The notes under the pieces are model-generated. The model was not told the DNA's origin and searched no databases. It saw nothing but the letters and a program-made list of their open reading frames with translations. DNA of 46,731 bases from a virus (lineage: Duplodnaviria > Heunggongvirae > Uroviricota > Caudoviricetes): IMG/VR virus record IMGVR_UViG_2529292726_000019, one strand, 5' to 3'. Shown here piece by piece: positions 4,520-45,117 of the stretch; position 1 is the stretch's first letter; every line of letters starts with the position of its first letter. The position numbers were made by a program, and so were the translations under genes.

Positions 4520-4585
4520 CTTCTTTCTCGATAGGTAAGTAAATACCTATTTTTGCATTTGATTTTATGTCTGGCAATCAAATAA

Positions 4586-9034: not shown

Positions 9035-10165
9035 TCACACCGCCACTGGAACCTTGATCCACGGTAGAGGGGCATAGCCAAGAATAAGAATCTCGTCCCA
9101 TTTGAAATCATCCAGCTCAGACCATTCATTAGGGAATATAACGACCGGATCTGAATGCTCTGGAGCCTGTCGTTGCATTAGCTCACACACACCTTCCATG
9201 TGGTTGTTGTACAAATGCACGTCAAAGCCAAAATGCACAAATGCACCGGCCATGTGACCCGTAATCTTCGCGAGAAAATGAGTGAGAATGCCATAGCCAG
9301 CAATATTGAATGGCATACCAACAAAAGTGTCTACGCTACGCTGTACGAGGCAGGAGTTGAGGATGCGTTTGGGGATTCCAAGTTCATCCAGTTCAGTTTC
9401 AGTAACACTGCCGTCCATCTCCAGATCGTATAGCATCTTGGTGTAGATAGACTCATAACCGAGGCGACTGTGTTGAAGACCAATGTCAGTTGCCATCGTT
9501 AAACGGGTTTCAAAATCCAGTTCACGACTCCACAAAGAGAAGACAAAGTGGCAAGGGGGCAGTTTCATATCCTCAAGCTCGCCTACGTTCCATGCGTTAA
9601 GCATGATGCGACGATCGGTAGGGTTCGTGCGCAGTGTATCGACAATACGCTGTAGCTGATCGATTTCACGGGACAGCACTACGCGATCTTCACTGATACC
9701 CAGGTATCCCTCGACTTTGTACCCGCGTTCACGGAAAGTAGCGATCTTGCTCAGATATTCACTATGGCTCACGATGCGGGTATCTTCCCATCGACGCCAC
9801 TGCTTACCGTAAACCGGCCCCAAATCGCCATTCTCATCGGCCCATGCATCCCAAATCTTAACGCCGTTATCCTTGAGAAATTGGATGTTGCCCGTGCCTT
9901 TCAGATACCACTCAAGTTCGACAAGCAGTGGCTTAAGATTTACCGCCTTTCCAGAAATAAGCGGCACAGTCCCACCAGTAAGCATGTAGTAAGAGGGAAC
10001 GTAGCAGGTGCTTAAAGTACCAGTGCCTGTGCGATCATCAGCCTGCACGCCGCTTTTAAGCACCGTCTCAATAACTTTTGCATACGATGCGTTTGTTCCC
10101 TGACCGTTCGTATGCTCACGATTCAAAAGGAGTGACACAAAAACCTCACAAAGATAAGTAACCAC
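9035..10165 (-). CDS. thyA: thymidylate synthase
   Basis: DDRTGTGTLS, LKPLLVELEWYLKG, GDLGPVYGKQWRRW and catalytic-Cys region MKLPPCHFVFSLW. Confidence 0.85.
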   Translation of the reverse strand: MVTYLCEVFVSLLLNREHTNGQGTNASYAKVIETVLKSGVQADDRTGTGTLSTCYVPSYYMLTGGTVPLISGKAVNLKPLLVELEWYLKGTGNIQFLKDNGVKIWDAWADENGDLGPVYGKQWRRWEDTRIVSHSEYLSKIATFRERGYKVEGYLGISEDRVVLSREIDQLQRIVDTLRTNPTDRRIMLNAWNVGELEDMKLPPCHFVFSLWSRELDFETRLTMATDIGLQHSRLGYESIYTKMLYDLEMDGSVTETELDELGIPKRILNSCLVQRSVDTFVGMPFNIAGYGILTHFLAKITGHMAGAFVHFGFDVHLYNNHMEGVCELMQRQAPEHSDPVVIFPNEWSELDDFKWDEILILGYAPLPWIKVPVAV

Positions 10166-10222
10166 TTATTCATTGCGTGAGTTTACATTTATTGAGAGAA
10201 CAAGACCAGACAGATAAAAAAA

Positions 10223-14860: not shown

Positions 14861-14894
14861 ATGTTAATAGATAAGCACTTACCTATCAATGAAA

Positions 14895-19438: not shown

Positions 19439-19692
19439 GTGTTTTTCCTTTGTGGTTATTTTGATACAAATTTTAAGAGCAATGAGAAGGTAAACAACTA
19501 TGCATAACGGTATGTTAGGAATGAAACGAGCGTCTTAATATACAAAATTTATAAGTAAGTATATACCTATTTGTTGTGACGCAACTTTGCTTGTCTGTAT
19601 AACTAAAAATAAGACAGGATCACTGTAGAACGCTATGAGAGCTATTTTGAGGAGGCGTAGATTCTATCTACGCCAATATACGATCTGGAGGG

Positions 19693-20500: not shown

Positions 20501-20536
20501 TAAGCCGCGCCACGACTGGTCTGAAGTCATGTTCAT

Positions 20537-20648
20537 GTATGCTGTCAGCGGTAATTGATAGTCTGTCAGCGGTTCACCGTATGCTGCCAACTGTTTTTGG
20601 TATTCTGTCAGCGGCAAATCAAGTATGCTGTCAGCGGTTGAATGACAA
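20537..20648. repeat. five iterons (consensus GTATGCTGTCAGCGGT) upstream of repA at roughly 21-22 bp spacing
   Basis: Direct repeats at about 20537, 20559, 20579 (degenerate), 20600 and 20633. Confidence 0.8.
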
Positions 20649-20658
20649 AGGTGTCCAC

Positions 20659-21753
20659 ATGTCCACAAAAAATAAAAAAGGTAAAAATAACAAAGAAGTA
20701 GAAGATAACATCGACAACTTTGAAGAAGGTTCCCTTGAATTGTACACAGGGGAACTTGTCCCTAATAGCAACAATACAGTCCAACCAATTGCGTTGATGC
20801 GACTGGGGTTGTTCGTCCCCACGCTTAAGGGAACAAAATACAGTAAACGTAACAAGCCAAATGAGATCGATGCTTCAAAGGAGCTTGTCCAGCTCGAAGT
20901 AGCCCGTTCTGAAGGCTATTCCGATATCAAGATAACCGGTCCTCGTCTCGACATGGATCATGATTTCAAAACGTGGGTGGGCGTTGTGCGTTCGCTGGCA
21001 GAATACGGCGAACCTAACGGTCGTGTCGAGTTAAGCATCACGAAATTTGCTAAGTTTTGTGGCTATCCATCGTCACAGATCCGCAAAACACTCCGCGACC
21101 GGCTTACAAACAGTCTTTTGAAGATCATGCGTACAACTCTGTCTTTCCAGAGAACGTATGAAGAAAAGAACGTCGACGGCTCTAACAAGATCTCGCTTCT
21201 GATGGTGCACCTCATCAATAGCGTGGACTACAACGAGCAGAAAGATACGGTGGTGTTCTATGCAGAACCGAAGCTGGCCGAACTATATCGCTTTGACCAT
21301 AAGGTTCTTTTGCAGTTAAAGGTTATCAATAAGCTACCACGCAAAGAAACAGCACAGGCTCTGTACACCTTCATCGAAAGTCTTCCAACCAAGCCTGCGC
21401 CGGTATCGCTTGCTCGATTGCGTGCGCGACTCAATTTGAGTAGCAGAAATGTCAGCTCGCAGAATCAGACTATACGTAACGGCTTAAAAGCTCTCCAAGA
21501 TTTGGGCTATCTCGAATACAGCGAGATTAAGCGTGGGCGGTCGATCTATATCCAGATTCACAGCCGCAATCCAAAACTCAAAGTCGCACCGCCAAAACCT
21601 GAAGACATCGAACCCAAAAAACCAGATGAGAAAGCTGGGGAAATTGATGCCAAACAGAACATTATCAACAAGATAACCGAACTTTCGCAGAATTTGACGC
21701 CTGAAAATATCAAGATGATTGAGATCCTTTCCAATAGTCTCAAACTGCTTTGA
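20659..21753 (+). CDS. repA: iteron-binding replication initiator (RepA-like)
   Basis: Only long plus-strand gene in this block, bracketed by 17 copies of its presumptive binding site. Start placed at ATG 20659 (MSTKNKKGK) downstream of the iterons. Confidence 0.75.
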   Translation: MSTKNKKGKNNKEVEDNIDNFEEGSLELYTGELVPNSNNTVQPIALMRLGLFVPTLKGTKYSKRNKPNEIDASKELVQLEVARSEGYSDIKITGPRLDMDHDFKTWVGVVRSLAEYGEPNGRVELSITKFAKFCGYPSSQIRKTLRDRLTNSLLKIMRTTLSFQRTYEEKNVDGSNKISLLMVHLINSVDYNEQKDTVVFYAEPKLAELYRFDHKVLLQLKVINKLPRKETAQALYTFIESLPTKPAPVSLARLRARLNLSSRNVSSQNQTIRNGLKALQDLGYLEYSEIKRGRSIYIQIHSRNPKLKVAPPKPEDIEPKKPDEKAGEIDAKQNIINKITELSQNLTPENIKMIEILSNSLKLL

Positions 21754-21870
21754 TATGCTGTCAGCGGTGAAATGTATGCTATCAGCGGCTATTTTTCTGA
21801 AAAGTATGCTGTGAACGGTTAAAGATATGCTACCAGCGGTATAGTGAGATGAACGTATGCTGTGAGCGGT
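21754..21870. repeat. five iterons immediately downstream of repA
   Basis: Copies at about 21754, 21774, 21804, 21825 and 21855 with single-base variants. Confidence 0.8.
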
Positions 21871-22030
21871 AAATCATCTATCACCACTCAATGCTCTGTC
21901 ATACCTCCCCAGTGGTTACTAACCTCGAAGAGTGCATTCCATATAGGTTTGCGCTCACTAACATTCTATTGCTATTGCGCTGATTGCTTGTAGTGAAAGG
22001 CATTTATTGCCTGCTACTCCCTGATAGAAC

Positions 22031-22285
22031 GTATGCTGTCAGCGGTGTTTTATTGAGGAATTTTTGTTTGGATATGCTATCAGCGGTAATTAATGGTATA
22101 TGTCAGACATTCGTATGCTGCCAGCGGTAATTTTGTTCTGGTTATACCCATACCGGGACACATTATTCATGCAATTTCTTAAGTATGCTGTCAGCGGTAA
22201 AAAATCGAGTAAAGTATGCTGTGAGCGGTGAGATAGACTCTCGATATGCTATCAGCGGTAGTTGATTGTGTATGCTGTCAGCGGT
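22031..22285. repeat. seven further iterons (incA-like copy-control array)
   Basis: Copies at about 22031, 22072, 22114, 22183, 22214, 22244 and 22270. Confidence 0.8.
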
Positions 22286-22300
22286 GACGACTATGAAATA

Positions 22301-22325
22301 TGACTGCGGAACGTGCCGCAGTCAG
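22301..22325 (-). terminator. hairpin gactgcgg-aacgt-gccgcagtc
   Basis: Perfect 8-bp stem followed by a T-rich run on the plus strand, i.e. after the repA/iteron unit; it precedes rather than follows the adjacent minus-strand gene. Confidence 0.45.
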
Positions 22326-22332
22326 TTTGCAT

Positions 22333-22545
22333 TTAGTGTATTTTCTTTAACAGACCCCAAAGTGTTCCGGCTTTTGTAGTCAGTTTTCCTGTTTCTGGAT
22401 CGTACATACGCCATTCACGCCGCTGGTGGACGATATACCCATCTTCACGTTCCAGACGCTCAAGAATGCCAGGCTGCTTGAAACCCTTAGCACGCCAGTA
22501 GCCGCTTGTTTTCTCGATTTCCAGACCTGCCAGTGTTAATGCCAT
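22333..22545 (-). CDS. hypothetical protein (70 aa)
   Basis: ORF; stop/start coupled with the upstream gene. Confidence 0.4.
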   Translation of the reverse strand: MALTLAGLEIEKTSGYWRAKGFKQPGILERLEREDGYIVHQRREWRMYDPETGKLTTKAGTLWGLLKKIH

Positions 22546-22880
22546 TACCCAACCTCCTTGCAGTCATCGAAAAGGTAGCTTTGCTGAGAAGCGTGAACGC
22601 CATAGAAGCCCTTGTATTTGTTGTATACGAAGTGGTCTTCTCCGACGCCGGTTAATTTGCCATTACGATTTGTGAGATATGGGGATGACAACACTCGATC
22701 GTCACGCACAACATAGAACTGGTCGCCGCTGTCTACGACCATCGCTCCATATGGTGCTTTTATGACGTCGGTAAGAGCGCCATTCTTAACGTCGGCTACA
22801 GACATTTCACACTGATAAACAGTGGTGTCGGCCACAACGATCGAAGAAAGAAACAACAGCGCGAATGGGATGGTCTTCAT
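22545..22880 (-). CDS. secreted protein (111 aa) with N-terminal signal peptide
   Basis: MKTIPFALLFLSSIVVA signal-like N-terminus. Confidence 0.5.
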   Translation of the reverse strand: MKTIPFALLFLSSIVVADTTVYQCEMSVADVKNGALTDVIKAPYGAMVVDSGDQFYVVRDDRVLSSPYLTNRNGKLTGVGEDHFVYNKYKGFYGVHASQQSYLFDDCKEVG

Positions 22881-23056
22881 GCTGCCACCTCTTTGATTAC
22901 ATCAAATGCTGAATTAAATACGAGCACGATAGCCAAAGCGTTTATGACTACGTCGTGCACCGGGGAAAAGACTTTACGAATGACACCAGTGAAAATGCAG
23001 TCGATGACAAAAGCTATTGAAACGATGAGTAACAAGTATTCAATAAAAATCTTCAT
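22877..23056 (-). CDS. small membrane protein (59 aa, below the ORF-track cutoff)
   Basis: Hand-translated MKIFIEYLLLIVSIAFVIDCIF...; ATGA-coupled to the next gene. Confidence 0.3.
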   Translation of the reverse strand: MKIFIEYLLLIVSIAFVIDCIFTGVIRKVFSPVHDVVINALAIVLVFNSAFDVIKEVAA

Positions 23057-23095
23057 GATAGGTAGATACTAACTTATATAAACTTTACTGTAAAC

Positions 23096-23371
23096 TCACT
23101 CAAAAGTGCTGATGCTTAAAATACGCTCAAGATGTTCAGCATCTTCATTACTGATTTGTTGAGTCTCTTCTACGTACCAACAGTTGCCGTTATGCCAACA
23201 AACACCATCATCATCAACCATCACTGAATCAGCGTCATGACCTGTATATTCAACAAGAGTACGCTGGATCAGCGCGTCAGTTTCTTCATCGTTAAGGCCA
23301 TCGACTTTGACCATAAAAAGCGGAAACACGTCATAGACAGTGCTGGTAACGATTCGAACTAAAACTCTCAT
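23096..23371 (-). CDS. hypothetical acidic protein (91 aa)
   Basis: ORF with conserved start region. Confidence 0.45.
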   Translation of the reverse strand: MRVLVRIVTSTVYDVFPLFMVKVDGLNDEETDALIQRTLVEYTGHDADSVMVDDDGVCWHNGNCWYVEETQQISNEDAEHLERILSISTFE

Positions 23372-23426
23372 GTGTTTTTCCTTTTGTGGTTAGTGTTTAC
23401 TTATTTTGTTAGTTATGAATAGGCGA

Positions 23427-23852
23427 TCAATCTTCTTGGTTAGGGAAAAACTGTTCAATAACTCTGTCAACGGCTGTGTCTATATGGAGTAGATGCCACA
23501 CAACCATATCTTTGCTTCCCATGCCTTGTGTGAATATCACGTCATACTTACGCCATGCGCAGTGGAACCAATATGCTGAGTCATCAATTGGTAAATCCTC
23601 TCCCGCCTCTTTGAAGTATTTCAGCAGCATTGCCTGCTCTGCCGTTGGCGTTGGACCTATTTCCTGAGCGTACATACGGATGAATCGCTGCCAGTCTGTC
23701 TCGTCGGGGGTTGGATCTGGTGGGGGCATTTCTGCGATAGCGTTTCGTAGCTGATGCGCCCAATCAGGTTCAGGAAAGCCTTTTGCTACTTCATCATCAA
23801 TAACATCCAGAGCCACGTTTGCGGCATCGTAGAGTTTCTTAATAACTGTCAT
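23427..23852 (-). CDS. hypothetical protein (141 aa)
   Basis: ORF with the AAACAAATTGTTTT motif upstream. Confidence 0.5.
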   Translation of the reverse strand: MTVIKKLYDAANVALDVIDDEVAKGFPEPDWAHQLRNAIAEMPPPDPTPDETDWQRFIRMYAQEIGPTPTAEQAMLLKYFKEAGEDLPIDDSAYWFHCAWRKYDVIFTQGMGSKDMVVWHLLHIDTAVDRVIEQFFPNQED

Positions 23853-23906
23853 GTTTTCTTATCCTTTTAAACAAATTGTTTTCTTAATAAGATAATTGCG
23901 ATAAAA

Positions 23907-23928
23907 AAGGCGTCCAACTGGACGCCTG
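23907..23928 (-). terminator. rho-independent terminator aaggcgtcc-aact-ggacgcctt
   Basis: Hairpin followed by a T-run on the minus strand after the SPFH gene. Confidence 0.5.
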
Positions 23929-23943
23929 AACTTTTTAGGGGAG

Positions 23944-24774
23944 TTATTTCACTGTAATGAAAGGAGTGTTAGCCCCTTGAGTCATGTACTGCGGTAACTG
24001 GCCATTCCATTTATTGATGGCTTCCAGTTCCATAACGTTCGGGTTTTGACGCAGAGCTTCACCGCGCAGACGAATGGCGTCTGCTTCTGCTTGCGCACGA
24101 GCACGGATAGCATCAGCTTCACCATTAGCCTGTTCACGTAGCATATTCGCCTCAGCTTTACGTTGTTCAACTTCCTGCTGACGTTGCAGAGTACGCTGGT
24201 TAGCCGTTACTTTGGCGTTGATAGATTCAATGACGGTTTTTGGGTAATCAGGCTTTCCAACCCATGACAGGCTCAGTACCTCAATACCAACCGGAGACAT
24301 CTCTTTCTGAATGTCTTTCAGTGCGTTGTCCAGCAATTGCGCCTTACCACCGTCGATAAATGAGTCAGTGGTCATACGGCTGGCCAAACGGTTTAGAGAG
24401 TCGGCAATTTTCTGACGCAGATCTGATTCGGTGATATCGTCTACGCCTTTGCGATAGGTCTGGAACACCGTCGTTACCTTGTCACGATTAACCAGATACG
24501 CAACGCCAATTTTGTGACCAATAGCAGTACCGTCACTCATCTGGAATGTGAACGGTTCGTCGTAGGTCTTCATTTGTTTGAAGGTCGGGAATACGTAAAG
24601 TTCGGTGTTAAGACCTGTCCATTGGCGACCAACGCCAACCACTTCACCGATCCCTTTGTCTTCACCTAATTTGTTTACTTTGATGCCAACGTATCCAGGC
24701 TCCACGCGATCACAGCCAGTAAGACCCATTGTGCAAATAGCCGCCAGAGCAACTGCAAGTAAACCTTTCTTCAT
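23944..24774 (-). CDS. SPFH/band-7 (stomatin/prohibitin-like) lipoprotein
   Basis: Lipobox LTGC after a signal peptide, band-7-like core, Ala/Glu/Arg-rich coiled-coil tail (EADAIRARAQAEADAIRLRGE). Confidence 0.6.
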   Translation of the reverse strand: MKKGLLAVALAAICTMGLTGCDRVEPGYVGIKVNKLGEDKGIGEVVGVGRQWTGLNTELYVFPTFKQMKTYDEPFTFQMSDGTAIGHKIGVAYLVNRDKVTTVFQTYRKGVDDITESDLRQKIADSLNRLASRMTTDSFIDGGKAQLLDNALKDIQKEMSPVGIEVLSLSWVGKPDYPKTVIESINAKVTANQRTLQRQQEVEQRKAEANMLREQANGEADAIRARAQAEADAIRLRGEALRQNPNVMELEAINKWNGQLPQYMTQGANTPFITVK

Positions 24775-24777
24775 TAC

Positions 24778-24978
24778 TTATTTCCCCTTTGCTTTGATTA
24801 ATGAGTTGATAAACTTACGACCAGCAATAAGACCGATTACAGGAGCACCAAAACCAACGATAACTCCAAACATGACGGCTAAATCACTCTTGGTAGAAAT
24901 CAGCGACGGAACCAGTAAACCGTAGATGAGAGTCACTGAAAGGCCTGTGGCTACTGCCAATAGATAGATTTTGATCAT
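24778..24978 (-). CDS. small two-helix membrane protein (66 aa), co-transcribed upstream of the SPFH gene
   Basis: Hydrophobic throughout; conserved start region and a palindrome upstream. Confidence 0.5.
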   Translation of the reverse strand: MIKIYLLAVATGLSVTLIYGLLVPSLISTKSDLAVMFGVIVGFGAPVIGLIAGRKFINSLIKAKGK

Positions 24979-25045
24979 GTGTTTTCCTATGTGGTTGTTA
25001 TGCGAAAATAATAAGTAAGCACTTATATATTTTCAAGAGATAAAA

Positions 25046-25066
25046 AAGGCGTCCTGTGGACGCCTT
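25046..25066 (-). terminator. rho-independent terminator aaggcgtcc-tgtg-gacgcctt
   Basis: Hairpin plus T-run on the minus strand after the recA-like gene. Confidence 0.5.
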
Positions 25067-25070
25067 GTGT

Positions 25071-26144
25071 TTACTCTTCTACTGACTCGGTTGGGTTGTC
25101 TTTTGCTCTTCGGTCGTCGATTGCCTGCAAAGCCGCAATGATTTCAGCCAGTGGCTTCTCCCGATACATCTCGACGATCTGCGATTTGGTGTATTTCTTG
25201 TCACCAATTTCAACTCGCCCGCTGGCGTTCTTTGGCAGGTATCCTTCTTCCAGCATGTACTCGACGAGCGATTCGATAACGTCGAGGCCACGAGTAGGAT
25301 CGAAGTAGAATTTCCAGGTGCATTTGCCATACGGTGGTGCAACTTTGTTTTTGATGCATTCTGCGCCTACGTCCTGGCCGATCTTCTCTTTACCATCCTT
25401 CATCACCGATGCACCAAGACGGATACGTACAGAAGCGTAGAACTTCGGTGAATCTCCACCTGGCGACGTAGTAGGGTCGCCAAACATTACACCGATTTTT
25501 GTGCGAACCTGATTCAAGAAGATGATGCAGGCGTTGTATTTGCGTGCCCACAAAGCCAGAGTAGGGAAGTTCGCACTTGTCGCACGAGCCAGTGCCGTAT
25601 TGTCGTTCATGTTCAGCTGATCTTTGTCTTTGGCAGTGCCTTCAGCCATCTTTTCGAACTTCTCGGCTTTGGAGTTCGGAACCATAGACGCAAGTGAGTC
25701 AGCCACGATACAGATAGGTGCTGATTCAGGAATAAGCTCTTCATCACGTACCAATTTAAGAATTGTGCCGATCAACTCTACAGAGTCTTCGAAGGTATCA
25801 GGCTGCTTGTATACCCACTGACCGTCATCCTCATCTGCGTTCAGGCCATTGGCTACAGCCAGGCCAACGTCAAAACTGTTTTCATGATCGAGGAATACCG
25901 CCAGACCATCTTGTTTTTGAGCGGAGATCATCGCTGCTGTTGCAAGGAACGTTTTCCCTGCACTTGGAGGACCGAATACTTCGACGATACGACCACATGG
26001 GAAGCCGCCATCGTAACGACCAGAAATAGCTTTGTTTAACGGTGGAAAGCCTGTATCAATCCAATGAGTTACTTTCTGAATTTCGTCGTTGCTACCGATT
26101 TTCTTTTTCAGAGCAAGTGCCAGTGCGGATTTTCCTTTTGCCAT
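25071..26144 (-). CDS. recA: RecA-like recombinase
   Basis: GGFPCGRIVEVFGPPSAGKTFLA Walker A region and RecA-like core. Confidence 0.85.
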   Translation of the reverse strand: MAKGKSALALALKKKIGSNDEIQKVTHWIDTGFPPLNKAISGRYDGGFPCGRIVEVFGPPSAGKTFLATAAMISAQKQDGLAVFLDHENSFDVGLAVANGLNADEDDGQWVYKQPDTFEDSVELIGTILKLVRDEELIPESAPICIVADSLASMVPNSKAEKFEKMAEGTAKDKDQLNMNDNTALARATSANFPTLALWARKYNACIIFLNQVRTKIGVMFGDPTTSPGGDSPKFYASVRIRLGASVMKDGKEKIGQDVGAECIKNKVAPPYGKCTWKFYFDPTRGLDVIESLVEYMLEEGYLPKNASGRVEIGDKKYTKSQIVEMYREKPLAEIIAALQAIDDRRAKDNPTESVEE

Positions 26145-40813: not shown

Positions 40814-41591
40814 AATTCAGCACTGCCAGTATTTATTACTCAACAGTGCCAATCGCGACGGTTTAGTTTCTGCCAGGAAACGCACCGCTACTTGCACTTT
40901 TCGTTAGTGCCAGACGCTTTCGACTTCGCTCAATAGTAGAAGGCAAAATCTTTAAGTAGATGATGTTTCTGAGGACAGCACCTACTTTGTAATTTATACA
41001 ATGTGATGTATGGAATCATTTGTTGTGAAAACAGGCACCAATGGCAACAGTGGTTAAACCTACACAACAATCCTGTCTTCACAACGTTGAGGCCACTACT
41101 CCGATTGAATGTTTGCCCAACATGTTACATATCAACGCTCGCCGGTATCTCTGTGAATAGAACCTTAGAATTGATAAAAATGTAATGGCCTCAACGTTAT
41201 GTGCTGGCTAACCATACCAGCCGGGCTACGTCGCCGCTTTTTAACCCAGTATAAACGACATAATTGAACAAAATGACGTAACAGGATGGGCGGTCAGTGG
41301 CTAAGAATCCGGGAGTCATATGGAGTTGAAAATATACCAACCGCCCATTCTGTTACTTCATCGGAGGGAACATGAATGTTCCCTCCTGCGTTCTGCAATC
41401 ACACTCGCTCAGTGTGTCCCATTTCGGTAACGAGGCTGGAAACTGACCTCGCTGGTGTTTGGCTTATTAGGCTACTGCCAGATAGACTTCTTCGTTTGCA
41501 CTTGTATTTAAGTTCAAACAGTCGCGTCTCAACGAAAACAAAGTCATCTTATACACAAAAGATAAGTAAGTAAATACTTATCAATATGTTT

Positions 41592-43725: not shown

Positions 43726-44204
43726 TGTTGTTTTACCTCCATATGTTGATCGATTTGCTCATGTGTTTCTTTTGTTGTTTCTTCAAGCAACGCCGCATAC
43801 ACGTCAGTGATCGCTGTTTGTGATGTGGTGCTCTTCTTAACCATGCTATTAATCGTTACACTGTCACGTTTTCGTTTTAAAGTTCTGGCTTGTTTATTCC
43901 GTTCTTCAACCTCCTTAATGAGCGCGGTCATATCTTCGAAATACAGAGATTCTCCTTTACGAATCTCTTCAACCATCATTTTTAACGCCTTGCATTTGCC
44001 TGCTTTGATAGCGGTTGCGCACGACTGGAATGAAGTTCGAGGAAGACGGTTTTCTTTGAAGGCAAGAATGGTGTGCTGGCAAACGGAGTAGCTGCAATAT
44101 GCCGACTCACCGTTTATCTTTACTTCCTCACAACGAAGTGAATAACCATTATTTCCTGAAATAGAGGGGATTTTTGACAAATCAGCTTTCACAACTACCG
44201 CCAT
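43722..44204 (-). CDS. hypothetical protein (160 aa)
   Basis: ORF with several Cys residues; stop/start coupled with the ligase gene. Confidence 0.5.
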   Translation of the reverse strand: MAVVVKADLSKIPSISGNNGYSLRCEEVKINGESAYCSYSVCQHTILAFKENRLPRTSFQSCATAIKAGKCKALKMMVEEIRKGESLYFEDMTALIKEVEERNKQARTLKRKRDSVTINSMVKKSTTSQTAITDVYAALLEETTKETHEQIDQHMEVKQQ

Positions 44205-44259
44205 AAATAATCTTGTACTTACCTATCGTTATTTGCGTAAAAAACGACGCGCGGAGAGA

Positions 44260-45042: not shown

Positions 45043-45117
45043 ACCAACTCCTAGCTAACAGATGAAAGTATTCTCACAGAAAGATAAGTAATCATCTACT
45101 TATTTTGAAGGTGATTG

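Follow-up and report, generated by a model that had tools for sequence, protein, structure and literature searches.

A putative operator-controlled operon for a membrane protein, a periplasmic protein and a Cra homologue in SSU5-type phage-plasmids

What do four small genes beside the replicon of a phage-plasmid encode, and do they act as one cassette? The question is raised by the IMG/VR record IMGVR_UViG_2529292726_000019, a virus sequence of 46,731 nucleotides (nt), the whole of which is called the window here, in which proteins of 91, 59, 111 and 70 amino acids (aa), designated p91, p59, p111 and p70, are encoded between positions 22333 and 23371. A preliminary description of this DNA treated the four genes as one translationally coupled set lying downstream of iteron arrays, and considered exclusion, toxin-antitoxin or host-interaction functions for it. 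The list of open reading frames (ORFs) bears out the coordinates, the lengths and the common orientation; however, all four genes are on the minus strand, so that transcription runs in the direction of the iteron array. In this report, we describe the genes as members of two units: p91 groups with an upstream gene for a DUF7238 protein and not with the other three, whereas p59, p111 and p70 appear, from their sequence, to form a tightly coupled operon that is controlled by a candidate operator. It should be mentioned that hundreds of records already contain the genes as hypothetical proteins, and that the homology of p70 to Cra has already been annotated. What is new here is the division into two units, the promoter overlapped by a putative operator, the regulon motif, the targeting and predicted fold of p111, and the link to a published macrophage induction.

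Genomic setting and coupling of the genes

Judged by its sequence matches, the window is an SSU5-type phage-plasmid of Escherichia coli. Over the segment 21800-24000, plasmid CP025888.1 agrees throughout (100% identity) and "Escherichia phage CMS-2020a" nearly so (99.8%); the identity is 98% with phages PhiR41_1 and Cyrano, and it falls to about 75% with Salmonella phage SSU5. A distant blastn search found 787 plasmid records of the SSU5/pHCM2/pMT1 phage-plasmid group that hold the cassette at least partly, from Klebsiella, Escherichia, Enterobacter, Yersinia (pMT1), Salmonella (pHCM2), Citrobacter and Cronobacter, and tblastn of p111 and p91 against a phage collection reached SSU5-type phages only. 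In the annotated genome of Cyrano, the cluster corresponds to CYRAN_59-62 and lies within a long co-directional block of DNA-metabolism genes (ligase, DNA polymerase III alpha, UvsY, a gp32-like single-strand-binding protein (SSB), RecA, SbcCD, RuvC, ribonucleotide reductase (RNR) and ThyX), into which RepA is inserted in the opposite orientation. In other words, the cassette belongs to a co-directional DNA-metabolism or early region of about 45 kb and is not an accessory of the replicon.

The preliminary description had named the absence of conservation, or of a coding signature, in relatives as grounds for giving the genes up. Orthologues are intact in 12 of the 12 loci examined, and the ratio of nonsynonymous to synonymous substitutions (dN/dS; pairwise Nei-Gojobori estimates against relatives at about 70-85% nucleotide identity) is 0.02-0.17 across the four genes, with ranges of 0.07-0.17 for p91, 0.07-0.15 for p111 and 0.02-0.05 for p70; for p59, dN is about 0.19 and dS is saturated. 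Because they are conserved and under purifying selection, the four ORFs are real genes, and the objection clearly fails. All four proteins match PHROG families from end to end (2209, 2535, 2077 and 804), each of which has no assigned function. When all seven proteins of the recA-repA interval were searched against Pfam, NCBIfam and PADLOC, only DUF7238 and SPFH were recovered; the sole PADLOC match was at chance level (Cas5, E 0.009), and no known exclusion or defence family was found among the cassette proteins.

The coupling proposed for the whole set holds for its last three members. The p59 and p111 genes overlap by ATGA and the p111 and p70 genes by TAATG, and a strong Shine-Dalgarno (SD) sequence lies inside the preceding gene in both cases (GAGGTG for the p111 start and AAGGAGGT for the p70 start). 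In contrast, p91 and p59 are separated by a spacer of 39 nt, p59 has no SD sequence, and a promoter with a candidate operator is predicted between them (23058..23094, minus strand), on the basis of a promoter scan and of the conservation of a palindrome. The -35 element TTTACA (23094-23089) is followed, after 17 nt, by the -10 element TAGTAT (23071-23066). The latter is part of the 20-bp palindrome ATAAGTTAGTATCTACCTAT at 23077-23058, and the ATG of p59 begins 1 nt beyond the palindrome. An alternative promoter, TTTATA-16-TATCAT, would place the start of the transcript within p59 and is less likely, as TTTACA-17-TAGTAT is the one conserved across lineages.

The palindrome is almost invariant upstream of p59 in SSU5, pMT1, pHCM2, two Klebsiella pneumoniae plasmids, Serratia, Klebsiella variicola and a metagenome contig, and it stays in place where the spacer around it and the genes themselves have diverged to 45-70%. 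A -35-like hexamer precedes the central TA(G/C)TAT by 17-18 nt in each lineage. Distant lineages have a leader of 14-24 nt with an SD sequence between the motif and p59. In the E. coli, Salmonella, Yersinia and Klebsiella lineages, the ATG of p59 abuts the palindrome, and the p59 mRNA would therefore be nearly leaderless there.

The order DUF7238-p91-p59-p111-Cra, facing Rep, is kept in relatives whose Cra is only 45-68% identical, with the p111 and Cra genes overlapping. Some members can be lost: there are K. pneumoniae plasmids without DUF7238 and SPFH, and some without p91. Because these plasmids drop the neighbours and yet retain the palindrome, p59, p111 and Cra, the trio is a conserved core. 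At the other end, a GC-rich hairpin (22301..22324) lies 8 nt past the p70 stop codon, scores as terminator-like on either strand and stands between the operon and the iterons; stable GC-rich hairpins of unrelated sequence follow the Cra stop codon in most lineages.

Products of the three genes

The computed properties of the proteins concur with those given in the preliminary description, namely that p91 is acidic, that p59 is a membrane protein and that p111 carries a signal peptide; the cassette does encode a membrane protein and an exported protein, as judged from the hydropathy of p59 and the signal peptide of p111. p59 (22877..23056, minus strand; PHROG 2535, E 4e-31) has a grand average of hydropathy of 1.56, with hydrophobic segments at about residues 3-26 and 33-55. 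Its homologues are 49-59 aa long in all lineages, including an uncalled one in locus L018, and they retain two transmembrane segments and a basic loop motif, F-(R/K)-K-x-F-x-P. p59 is predicted to be a hairpin with two transmembrane helices in the inner membrane.

p111 (22545..22880, minus strand; PHROG 2077) begins with MKTIPFALLFLSSIVVA|DTT, that is, MK, a hydrophobic core and the cleavage motif VVA|D, which would leave a mature protein of about 94 aa. The family is narrow. A word-indexed search gave 23 matches, and an exhaustive HMMER search of 1.84 billion representatives with a p111 profile gave 25 matches at E <= 1e-3, one of which is spurious (the repeat protein P0135). The full-length members examined are 111-121 aa long, one with an extended N-terminus, and all have an AXA-type signal peptide. 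Close and distant members alike have an invariant Cys pair (C24 and C107), near the mature N-terminus and near the C-terminus. With an n-h-c signal, small residues at -3 and -1, and a Cys pair suited to oxidation by DsbA, p111 is predicted to be a Sec-exported periplasmic protein; as there is no Cys at +1 of the cleavage site, it does not have the form of an o-spanin.

An AlphaFold2 (AF2) model of p111 is all-beta, with a mean predicted local distance difference test (pLDDT) score of 83.8. Foldseek found no significant match to it in the PDB (the best was LolA, with a template-modelling (TM) score of 0.40), and the sequence has no match in the PDB either. Among the predicted viral structures of BFVD, 12 matches at E <= 1e-3 were found, with TM scores up to 0.76, all of them small phage proteins; 4 of the 12 are annotated as lipoproteins (from Erwinia jumbo phages and Pectobacterium phage Possum), and the rest are unnamed or uncharacterised, as in Xanthomonas DIBBI. 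The pattern YQC...DDC prompted a comparison with the MliC/PliC lysozyme inhibitors, which, like p111, are exported beta proteins of about 100 aa with an N- and C-terminal Cys pair. However, the Pfam MliC family (PF09864) was not matched at E <= 1, and the Foldseek match to Pseudomonas aeruginosa MliC (3f6z_B) was insignificant (TM score 0.36-0.40, E about 0.03); p111 has neither a Pfam match nor a significant structural match, and membership of that family was rejected.

Among the distant relatives of p111 (E 1e-4 to 1e-6), some are isolated insertions within the tail module of an E217-like myophage. A further distant p111-like exported protein is found in a prophage-like chromosomal island (L020, 3676-5711), where it adjoins a protein with a Tlde1 domain; the island also encodes a membrane protein of 104 aa and a further exported protein of 117 aa, followed by genes resembling those of a phage baseplate. 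This arrangement hints at an effector/immunity-type setting. Finally, in pHCM2 of Salmonella Typhi (L005, 3202-3507; P0016), an in-frame deletion joins the first transmembrane segment and the loop of p59 to p111 from about residue 44 onward, and the resulting fusion, which lacks the signal peptide and the first Cys of p111, is found on many pHCM2 contigs.

The last gene of the operon, p70 (22333..22545, minus strand), encodes a basic protein (isoelectric point (pI) 9.6) that matches PHROG 804 over residues 1-70 with E 6.5e-34. In a tblastn search, it is 43.5% identical over 62 aa to the product of the bacteriophage P1 gene cra (E 1e-4), and the family alignment shows that the two share the motif LEIEKxxGYWRAKGF and a C-terminal LLK helix. 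By these sequence comparisons, p70 is a true homologue of P1 Cra, a member of a family that is confined to SSU5-type and P1-type phage-plasmids. The AF2 model of p70 (pLDDT 74.7) consists of six short strands and a helix at the C-terminus; its Foldseek matches in the PDB are single beta-propeller blades only and are uninformative, and a profile search of the PDB gave only a chance-level match to bL36.

The settings of the two genes differ. Both P1 and the SSU5-type elements are phage-plasmids of enterobacteria. In P1, the gene for Cra (73 aa; "putative cre associated function" in a GenBank note) precedes cre and contains the cre promoters. In contrast, p70 is the last coupled gene of an operon for membrane and periplasmic proteins and is followed by a hairpin and iterons, with no recombinase adjacent to it. 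Because no recombinase adjoins, the term "cre-associated" is not apt for p70, although position has no part in defining the sequence family. It should also be mentioned that 70-aa homologues of the P1 type (P0070, P0075, P0076, P0081, P0084, P0089 and P0096) are named "creatininase" at NCBI, evidently a mis-annotation spread from the gene symbol cra.

Candidate regulon, expression and neighbouring units

The palindrome in front of p59 is one of a series. The pattern ATAAGTWAGTATNTACCTAT, with <=3 mismatches allowed, occurs seven times in the window against 0.01 expected, and half-site scoring gives 11 palindrome sites, at 2318-2337, 4531-4550, 10154-10173, 14867-14886, 19551-19570, 23058-23077, 25011-25030, 28531-28550, 41562-41581, 44203-44222 and 45084-45103. 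These sites have the consensus ATA(A/G)GTA-N6-TAC(C/T)TAT, are intergenic and lie just upstream of early operons, and they are conserved at matching positions in SSU5, in pMT1 and in the relatives from Serratia and K. variicola. In Cyrano, which was annotated independently, all nine distinct sites are intergenic, the intergenic share of that DNA being 16%; they precede SSB, SbcD, RNR alpha, ThyX, a Dam methylase, CobS, a tRNA cluster, CYRAN_83 and p59. The gene for a putative helix-turn-helix repressor (36810-37196, plus strand) is preceded, at a distance of 29 nt, by a related palindrome, GGTAAGCACTTACC (36765-36778), and the half-sites CTTACCTAT at 36653 and TATGGTAAGG at 36584 lie in the same intergenic region (36559-36809), which separates this gene from a divergent one in the cro position. 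Because the palindrome fronts many early operons and a related form occurs in the repressor/cro-position region, we infer that a dimeric repressor encoded by the phage would use it as operator. The arrangement is like the C1 regulon of P1, where short operator-like repeats also stand before many early operons and in the immunity region; however, the SSU5-group motif is a 7-N6-7 palindrome (ATAAGTA-N6-TACTTAT), whereas the C1 operator of P1 is an asymmetric sequence of 17 bp. A literature search for work on an SSU5 repressor or operator returned nothing relevant.

When is the operon expressed? RNA-seq data (GSE154648) for E. coli LF82 carrying Cyrano were re-analysed in PMC9928086, and its S1 Table is the source of the values given here as mean log2(fpkm+5), where fpkm is fragments per kilobase per million. 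The five values for each gene refer to stationary phase in LB, then to 1 h and 6 h in Dulbecco's modified Eagle medium (DMEM), and then to 1 h and 6 h in THP-1 macrophages: they are 2.3, 4.3, 3.3, 7.0 and 8.6 for p59; 2.5, 4.7, 3.1, 6.2 and 8.4 for p111; and 3.7, 5.4, 6.3, 7.2 and 8.9 for Cra. The corresponding values are 2.5, 3.4, 3.0, 2.9 and 4.1 for DUF7238; 3.2, 4.1, 4.1, 5.6 and 5.0 for p91; and 7.0, 7.9, 7.5, 8.3 and 8.3 for RepA. In the comparison of macrophages at 6 h with DMEM at 6 h, p111 ranks first and p59 second of 123 genes (+5.4 and +5.3 log2), and p91 and DUF7238 rank 67th and 54th, with a change of about 1 log2. Expression thus steps up between CYRAN_59 and CYRAN_60, which fits an internal promoter upstream of p59.

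In the LB-grown Cyrano lysogen, the transcripts of p59 and p111 are at the floor, whereas repA and parA are expressed and KacT, RelE and HicAB are high; the list of lysogen-expressed genes in LB that the authors give (PMC9928086) includes none of p91, p59, p111 and Cra. The best correlates of the p59 profile are HicAB, CYRAN_46 in the cro position, the integrase and a LexA-like S24 protein (r 0.97-0.98, with r = 0.98 for CYRAN_46). Macrophages are described as genotoxic (PMC9928086), and the co-expression pattern of p59 fits derepression in such a setting.

The unit upstream of the operon is bounded by a hairpin terminator of an SPFH-lipoprotein operon (23908..23927, minus strand), which consists of an 8-pair stem followed by TTTTTTAT and sets the upstream limit of the DUF7238-p91 unit. 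The first gene after this terminator, which lies outside the coordinates covered by the preliminary description, encodes DUF7238 (23427..23852, minus strand), an acidic, cytoplasmic protein of 141 aa that matches Pfam PF23885 (E 5e-38) and PHROG 1451; it precedes p91 in every relative that retains it. p91 itself (23096..23371, minus strand; PHROG 2209, E 2e-56; pI 4.2) has no signal peptide and is predicted to be cytoplasmic. Its Cys pair, CWHNGNC, is variable among distant relatives, and it has no match in Pfam, NCBIfam, PADLOC or the PDB. Beyond the terminator, at 23944-24978, is an operon for a membrane protein of 66 aa and an SPFH/Band-7 protein of 276 aa with a lipobox (LTGC). The spacer of its promoter, TTGAAA-17-TATTAT (25036-25008), is taken up exactly by the palindrome, both in the window and in distant relatives, and the Cyrano copies of this operon are likewise induced in macrophages at 6 h. 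Farther upstream, the RecA-like gene of Cyrano (L001, 6740-9079) is 2340 nt long, against 1074 nt in the window (25071-26144) and SSU5, and its extra length suggests an intein or another insertion.

On the other side of the operon, the neighbouring iteron array (21749..22285, plus strand) consists of about 11 copies of GTATGCTGTCAGCGGT. The RepA of the window is 50% identical to that of Cyrano, which has iterons TATCCACTGTAGTGAG instead of GTATGCTGTCAGCGGT. From p91 to Cra, the two elements are 96-100% identical, and the nucleotide match begins exactly at the Cra stop codon, so that the breakpoint lies at this codon and the hairpin. It looks as if the replicon module (20533-20638 and 21749-22285 in the window; L001, 2293-3798) had been exchanged between close relatives beside an unchanged cluster, and for this reason a replicon-specific role of the cluster is disfavoured. 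As for RepA, the mechanically listed ORF of 404 aa starts within the upstream iterons (20533-20638); translation probably begins instead at the internal Met of MSTKNKKGK (about 20659), for a protein of about 364 aa, near the 351 aa of the RepA of relatives.

What the operon may do

The reading that we put forward, tentatively and with less than even confidence, is that this is a repressor-controlled early operon that puts p59 and p111 into the envelope of the induced cell, where they would most likely block further phage entry or protect the wall. The early region would contain two units, the first for the acidic cytoplasmic proteins DUF7238 and p91, and the second for p59, p111 and Cra. A sigma-70-type promoter, with its -10 element inside the palindrome, would be held off by the phage-encoded dimeric repressor; the operon would be off in the quiescent plasmid prophage and would be switched on early upon relief of repression or cell stress, as is seen for Cyrano in macrophages. 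p59, p111 and Cra would then be made in fixed proportion through translational coupling. p59 would enter the inner membrane as a two-helix hairpin, p111 would leave by the Sec route, with cleavage after VVA and a disulfide stapling it in the periplasm, and Cra would remain in the cytoplasm. Together, p59 and p111 may alter the envelope of the induced cell, and this could bar further phage DNA or shield the wall from incoming lytic enzymes.

Exclusion or envelope protection as the job of p59 and p111 is inferred by analogy. The Imm and Sp proteins of T4 and the Llp protein of T5 are early phage envelope proteins that block superinfection, and the cassette resembles them in logic only, in combining a small inner-membrane protein and a small exported protein with early phage expression; between them and the cassette proteins, no sequence similarity and no significant structural similarity was found. 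On the same analogy, the exclusion or host-interaction role considered in the preliminary description is possible.

Several observations weigh against this proposal. The cassette proteins have no homology to a characterised exclusion, immunity or inhibitor protein in Pfam, NCBIfam, PHROG or PADLOC, and p111 and Cra have no significant structural match in the PDB. P1 has Cra without p59 and p111, and given Cra alone in P1, the trio may not be one functional machine. The fusion in pHCM2 shows that the p59-p111 pair is dispensable in S. Typhi. Other operons preceded by the palindrome (sbcD, RNR and SSB) stay low in macrophages, and because several of them remain low, the palindrome alone cannot account for the induction. 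The RNA-seq data, for their part, come from two replicates, with few bacterial reads in macrophages and a median baseline raised by 2.25 log2, and they concern Cyrano and not this exact element.

A different view is that these small early genes share no more than a transcript and that their products do separate things, Cra acting on its own, as it must in P1, for example as a small nucleic-acid-binding regulator, and p59 and p111 being independent accessories of the ORFan type. We consider this unlikely, but with a real chance of being correct: the company of Cra is cre/lox in P1-type elements, and it is p59/p111 in SSU5-type elements only; two loci (L020 and L022) have p111-like proteins with no p59-like neighbour; and Cra is expressed about 3 log2 above p59 and p111 in DMEM at 6 h. 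On the contrary, the order p59-p111-Cra and the overlaps of starts and stops persist at 45-60% protein identity, as is usual for products that are needed together.

It has also to be asked whether the beneficiary is the host. p59 and p111 could form a host-protective conversion module that is induced by acid, low Mg, lysozyme or antimicrobial peptides and hardens the envelope, for example by inhibiting peptidoglycan hydrolases, thereby aiding survival in macrophages. The pair shows the strongest macrophage-specific induction of the 123 Cyrano genes, visible at 1 h and ahead of the late genes, and plasmids of intracellular pathogens carry it (pMT1, pHCM2 and that of the adherent-invasive E. coli strain LF82). 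There are structural echoes of MliC (TM score 0.36-0.40) and of an LprI-like protein of RB49 (TM score 0.48) in p111, and a distant p111 homologue adjoins a gene with the Tlde1 domain, that of a cell-wall-targeting effector. However, these structural similarities are weak and insignificant, Pfam MliC is unmatched, and the module is broken in pHCM2; moreover, the induction tracks the prophage markers of the SOS response or derepression (CYRAN_46, integrase and LexA-like S24 protein), and macrophages are genotoxic (PMC9928086). We regard such a module as improbable. Slightly more doubtful again is the specific version in which p59 and p111 give the carrier, inside host cells, an envelope protection that is induced by stress or macrophages, with a hitherto undescribed SSU5-group regulon of palindromic operators as its switch; the pair is carried by pMT1 of Y. 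pestis and by the phage-plasmid of adherent-invasive E. coli, and pHCM2 of S. Typhi has a broken copy of it.

A part in lysis control, in which p59 would resemble a holin or an antiholin and p111 would modulate the timing of lysis from the periplasm on the model of RI of T4, is very improbable. The size and the two-transmembrane topology of p59 do resemble those of class II holins, and p111 is small and periplasmic; however, a full holin-endolysin-Rz/Rz1 cassette is present elsewhere in Cyrano (CYRAN_22-25), no endolysin adjoins the trio, these families are not assigned to lysis in PHROG, and the trio is expressed earlier and higher than the lysis genes. Least credible of all is a role in plasmid maintenance tied to the replicon, with p59 as the membrane toxin of an addiction system or Cra as a copy-number or iteron-binding factor: the adjacency to iterons is constant in SSU5-type elements and the cra gene of P1 lies beside lox-cre, another maintenance locus, but the cluster that the preliminary description tied to the replicon is about 98-100% identical in Cyrano next to a RepA of 50% identity and unrelated iterons, and the trio is silent in the stable lysogen, where repA, parA and real toxin-antitoxin pairs are expressed. 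The toxin-antitoxin function suggested earlier finds no support on this evidence, as the proteins have no toxin or antitoxin domain of type II in Pfam, NCBIfam or PADLOC, their expression in the near-identical lysogen is at the floor, and no antisense or leader RNA, as in type I systems, was found in Rfam at E <= 1 within 21500-25200.

SSU5-type phage-plasmids, to which pMT1 of Y. pestis and pHCM2 of S. Typhi belong, are frequent in clinical Enterobacteriaceae, but there has been hardly any work on how they are regulated or on their accessory genes. Here, four "hypothetical proteins" give way to a defined unit with a promoter/candidate operator, a predicted membrane protein, a predicted periplasmic protein and a Cra homologue, and this unit is tied to published expression data, in which no other part of the element is induced as strongly in macrophages, and to a candidate operator that is common to the early operons. 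The trio is an uncharacterised member of the broad class of small envelope accessory modules encoded by phages. It may be an ordinary accessory cassette; if phage exclusion or envelope protection is its true role, however, the operon would be relevant to phage therapy and to the carriage of these plasmids.

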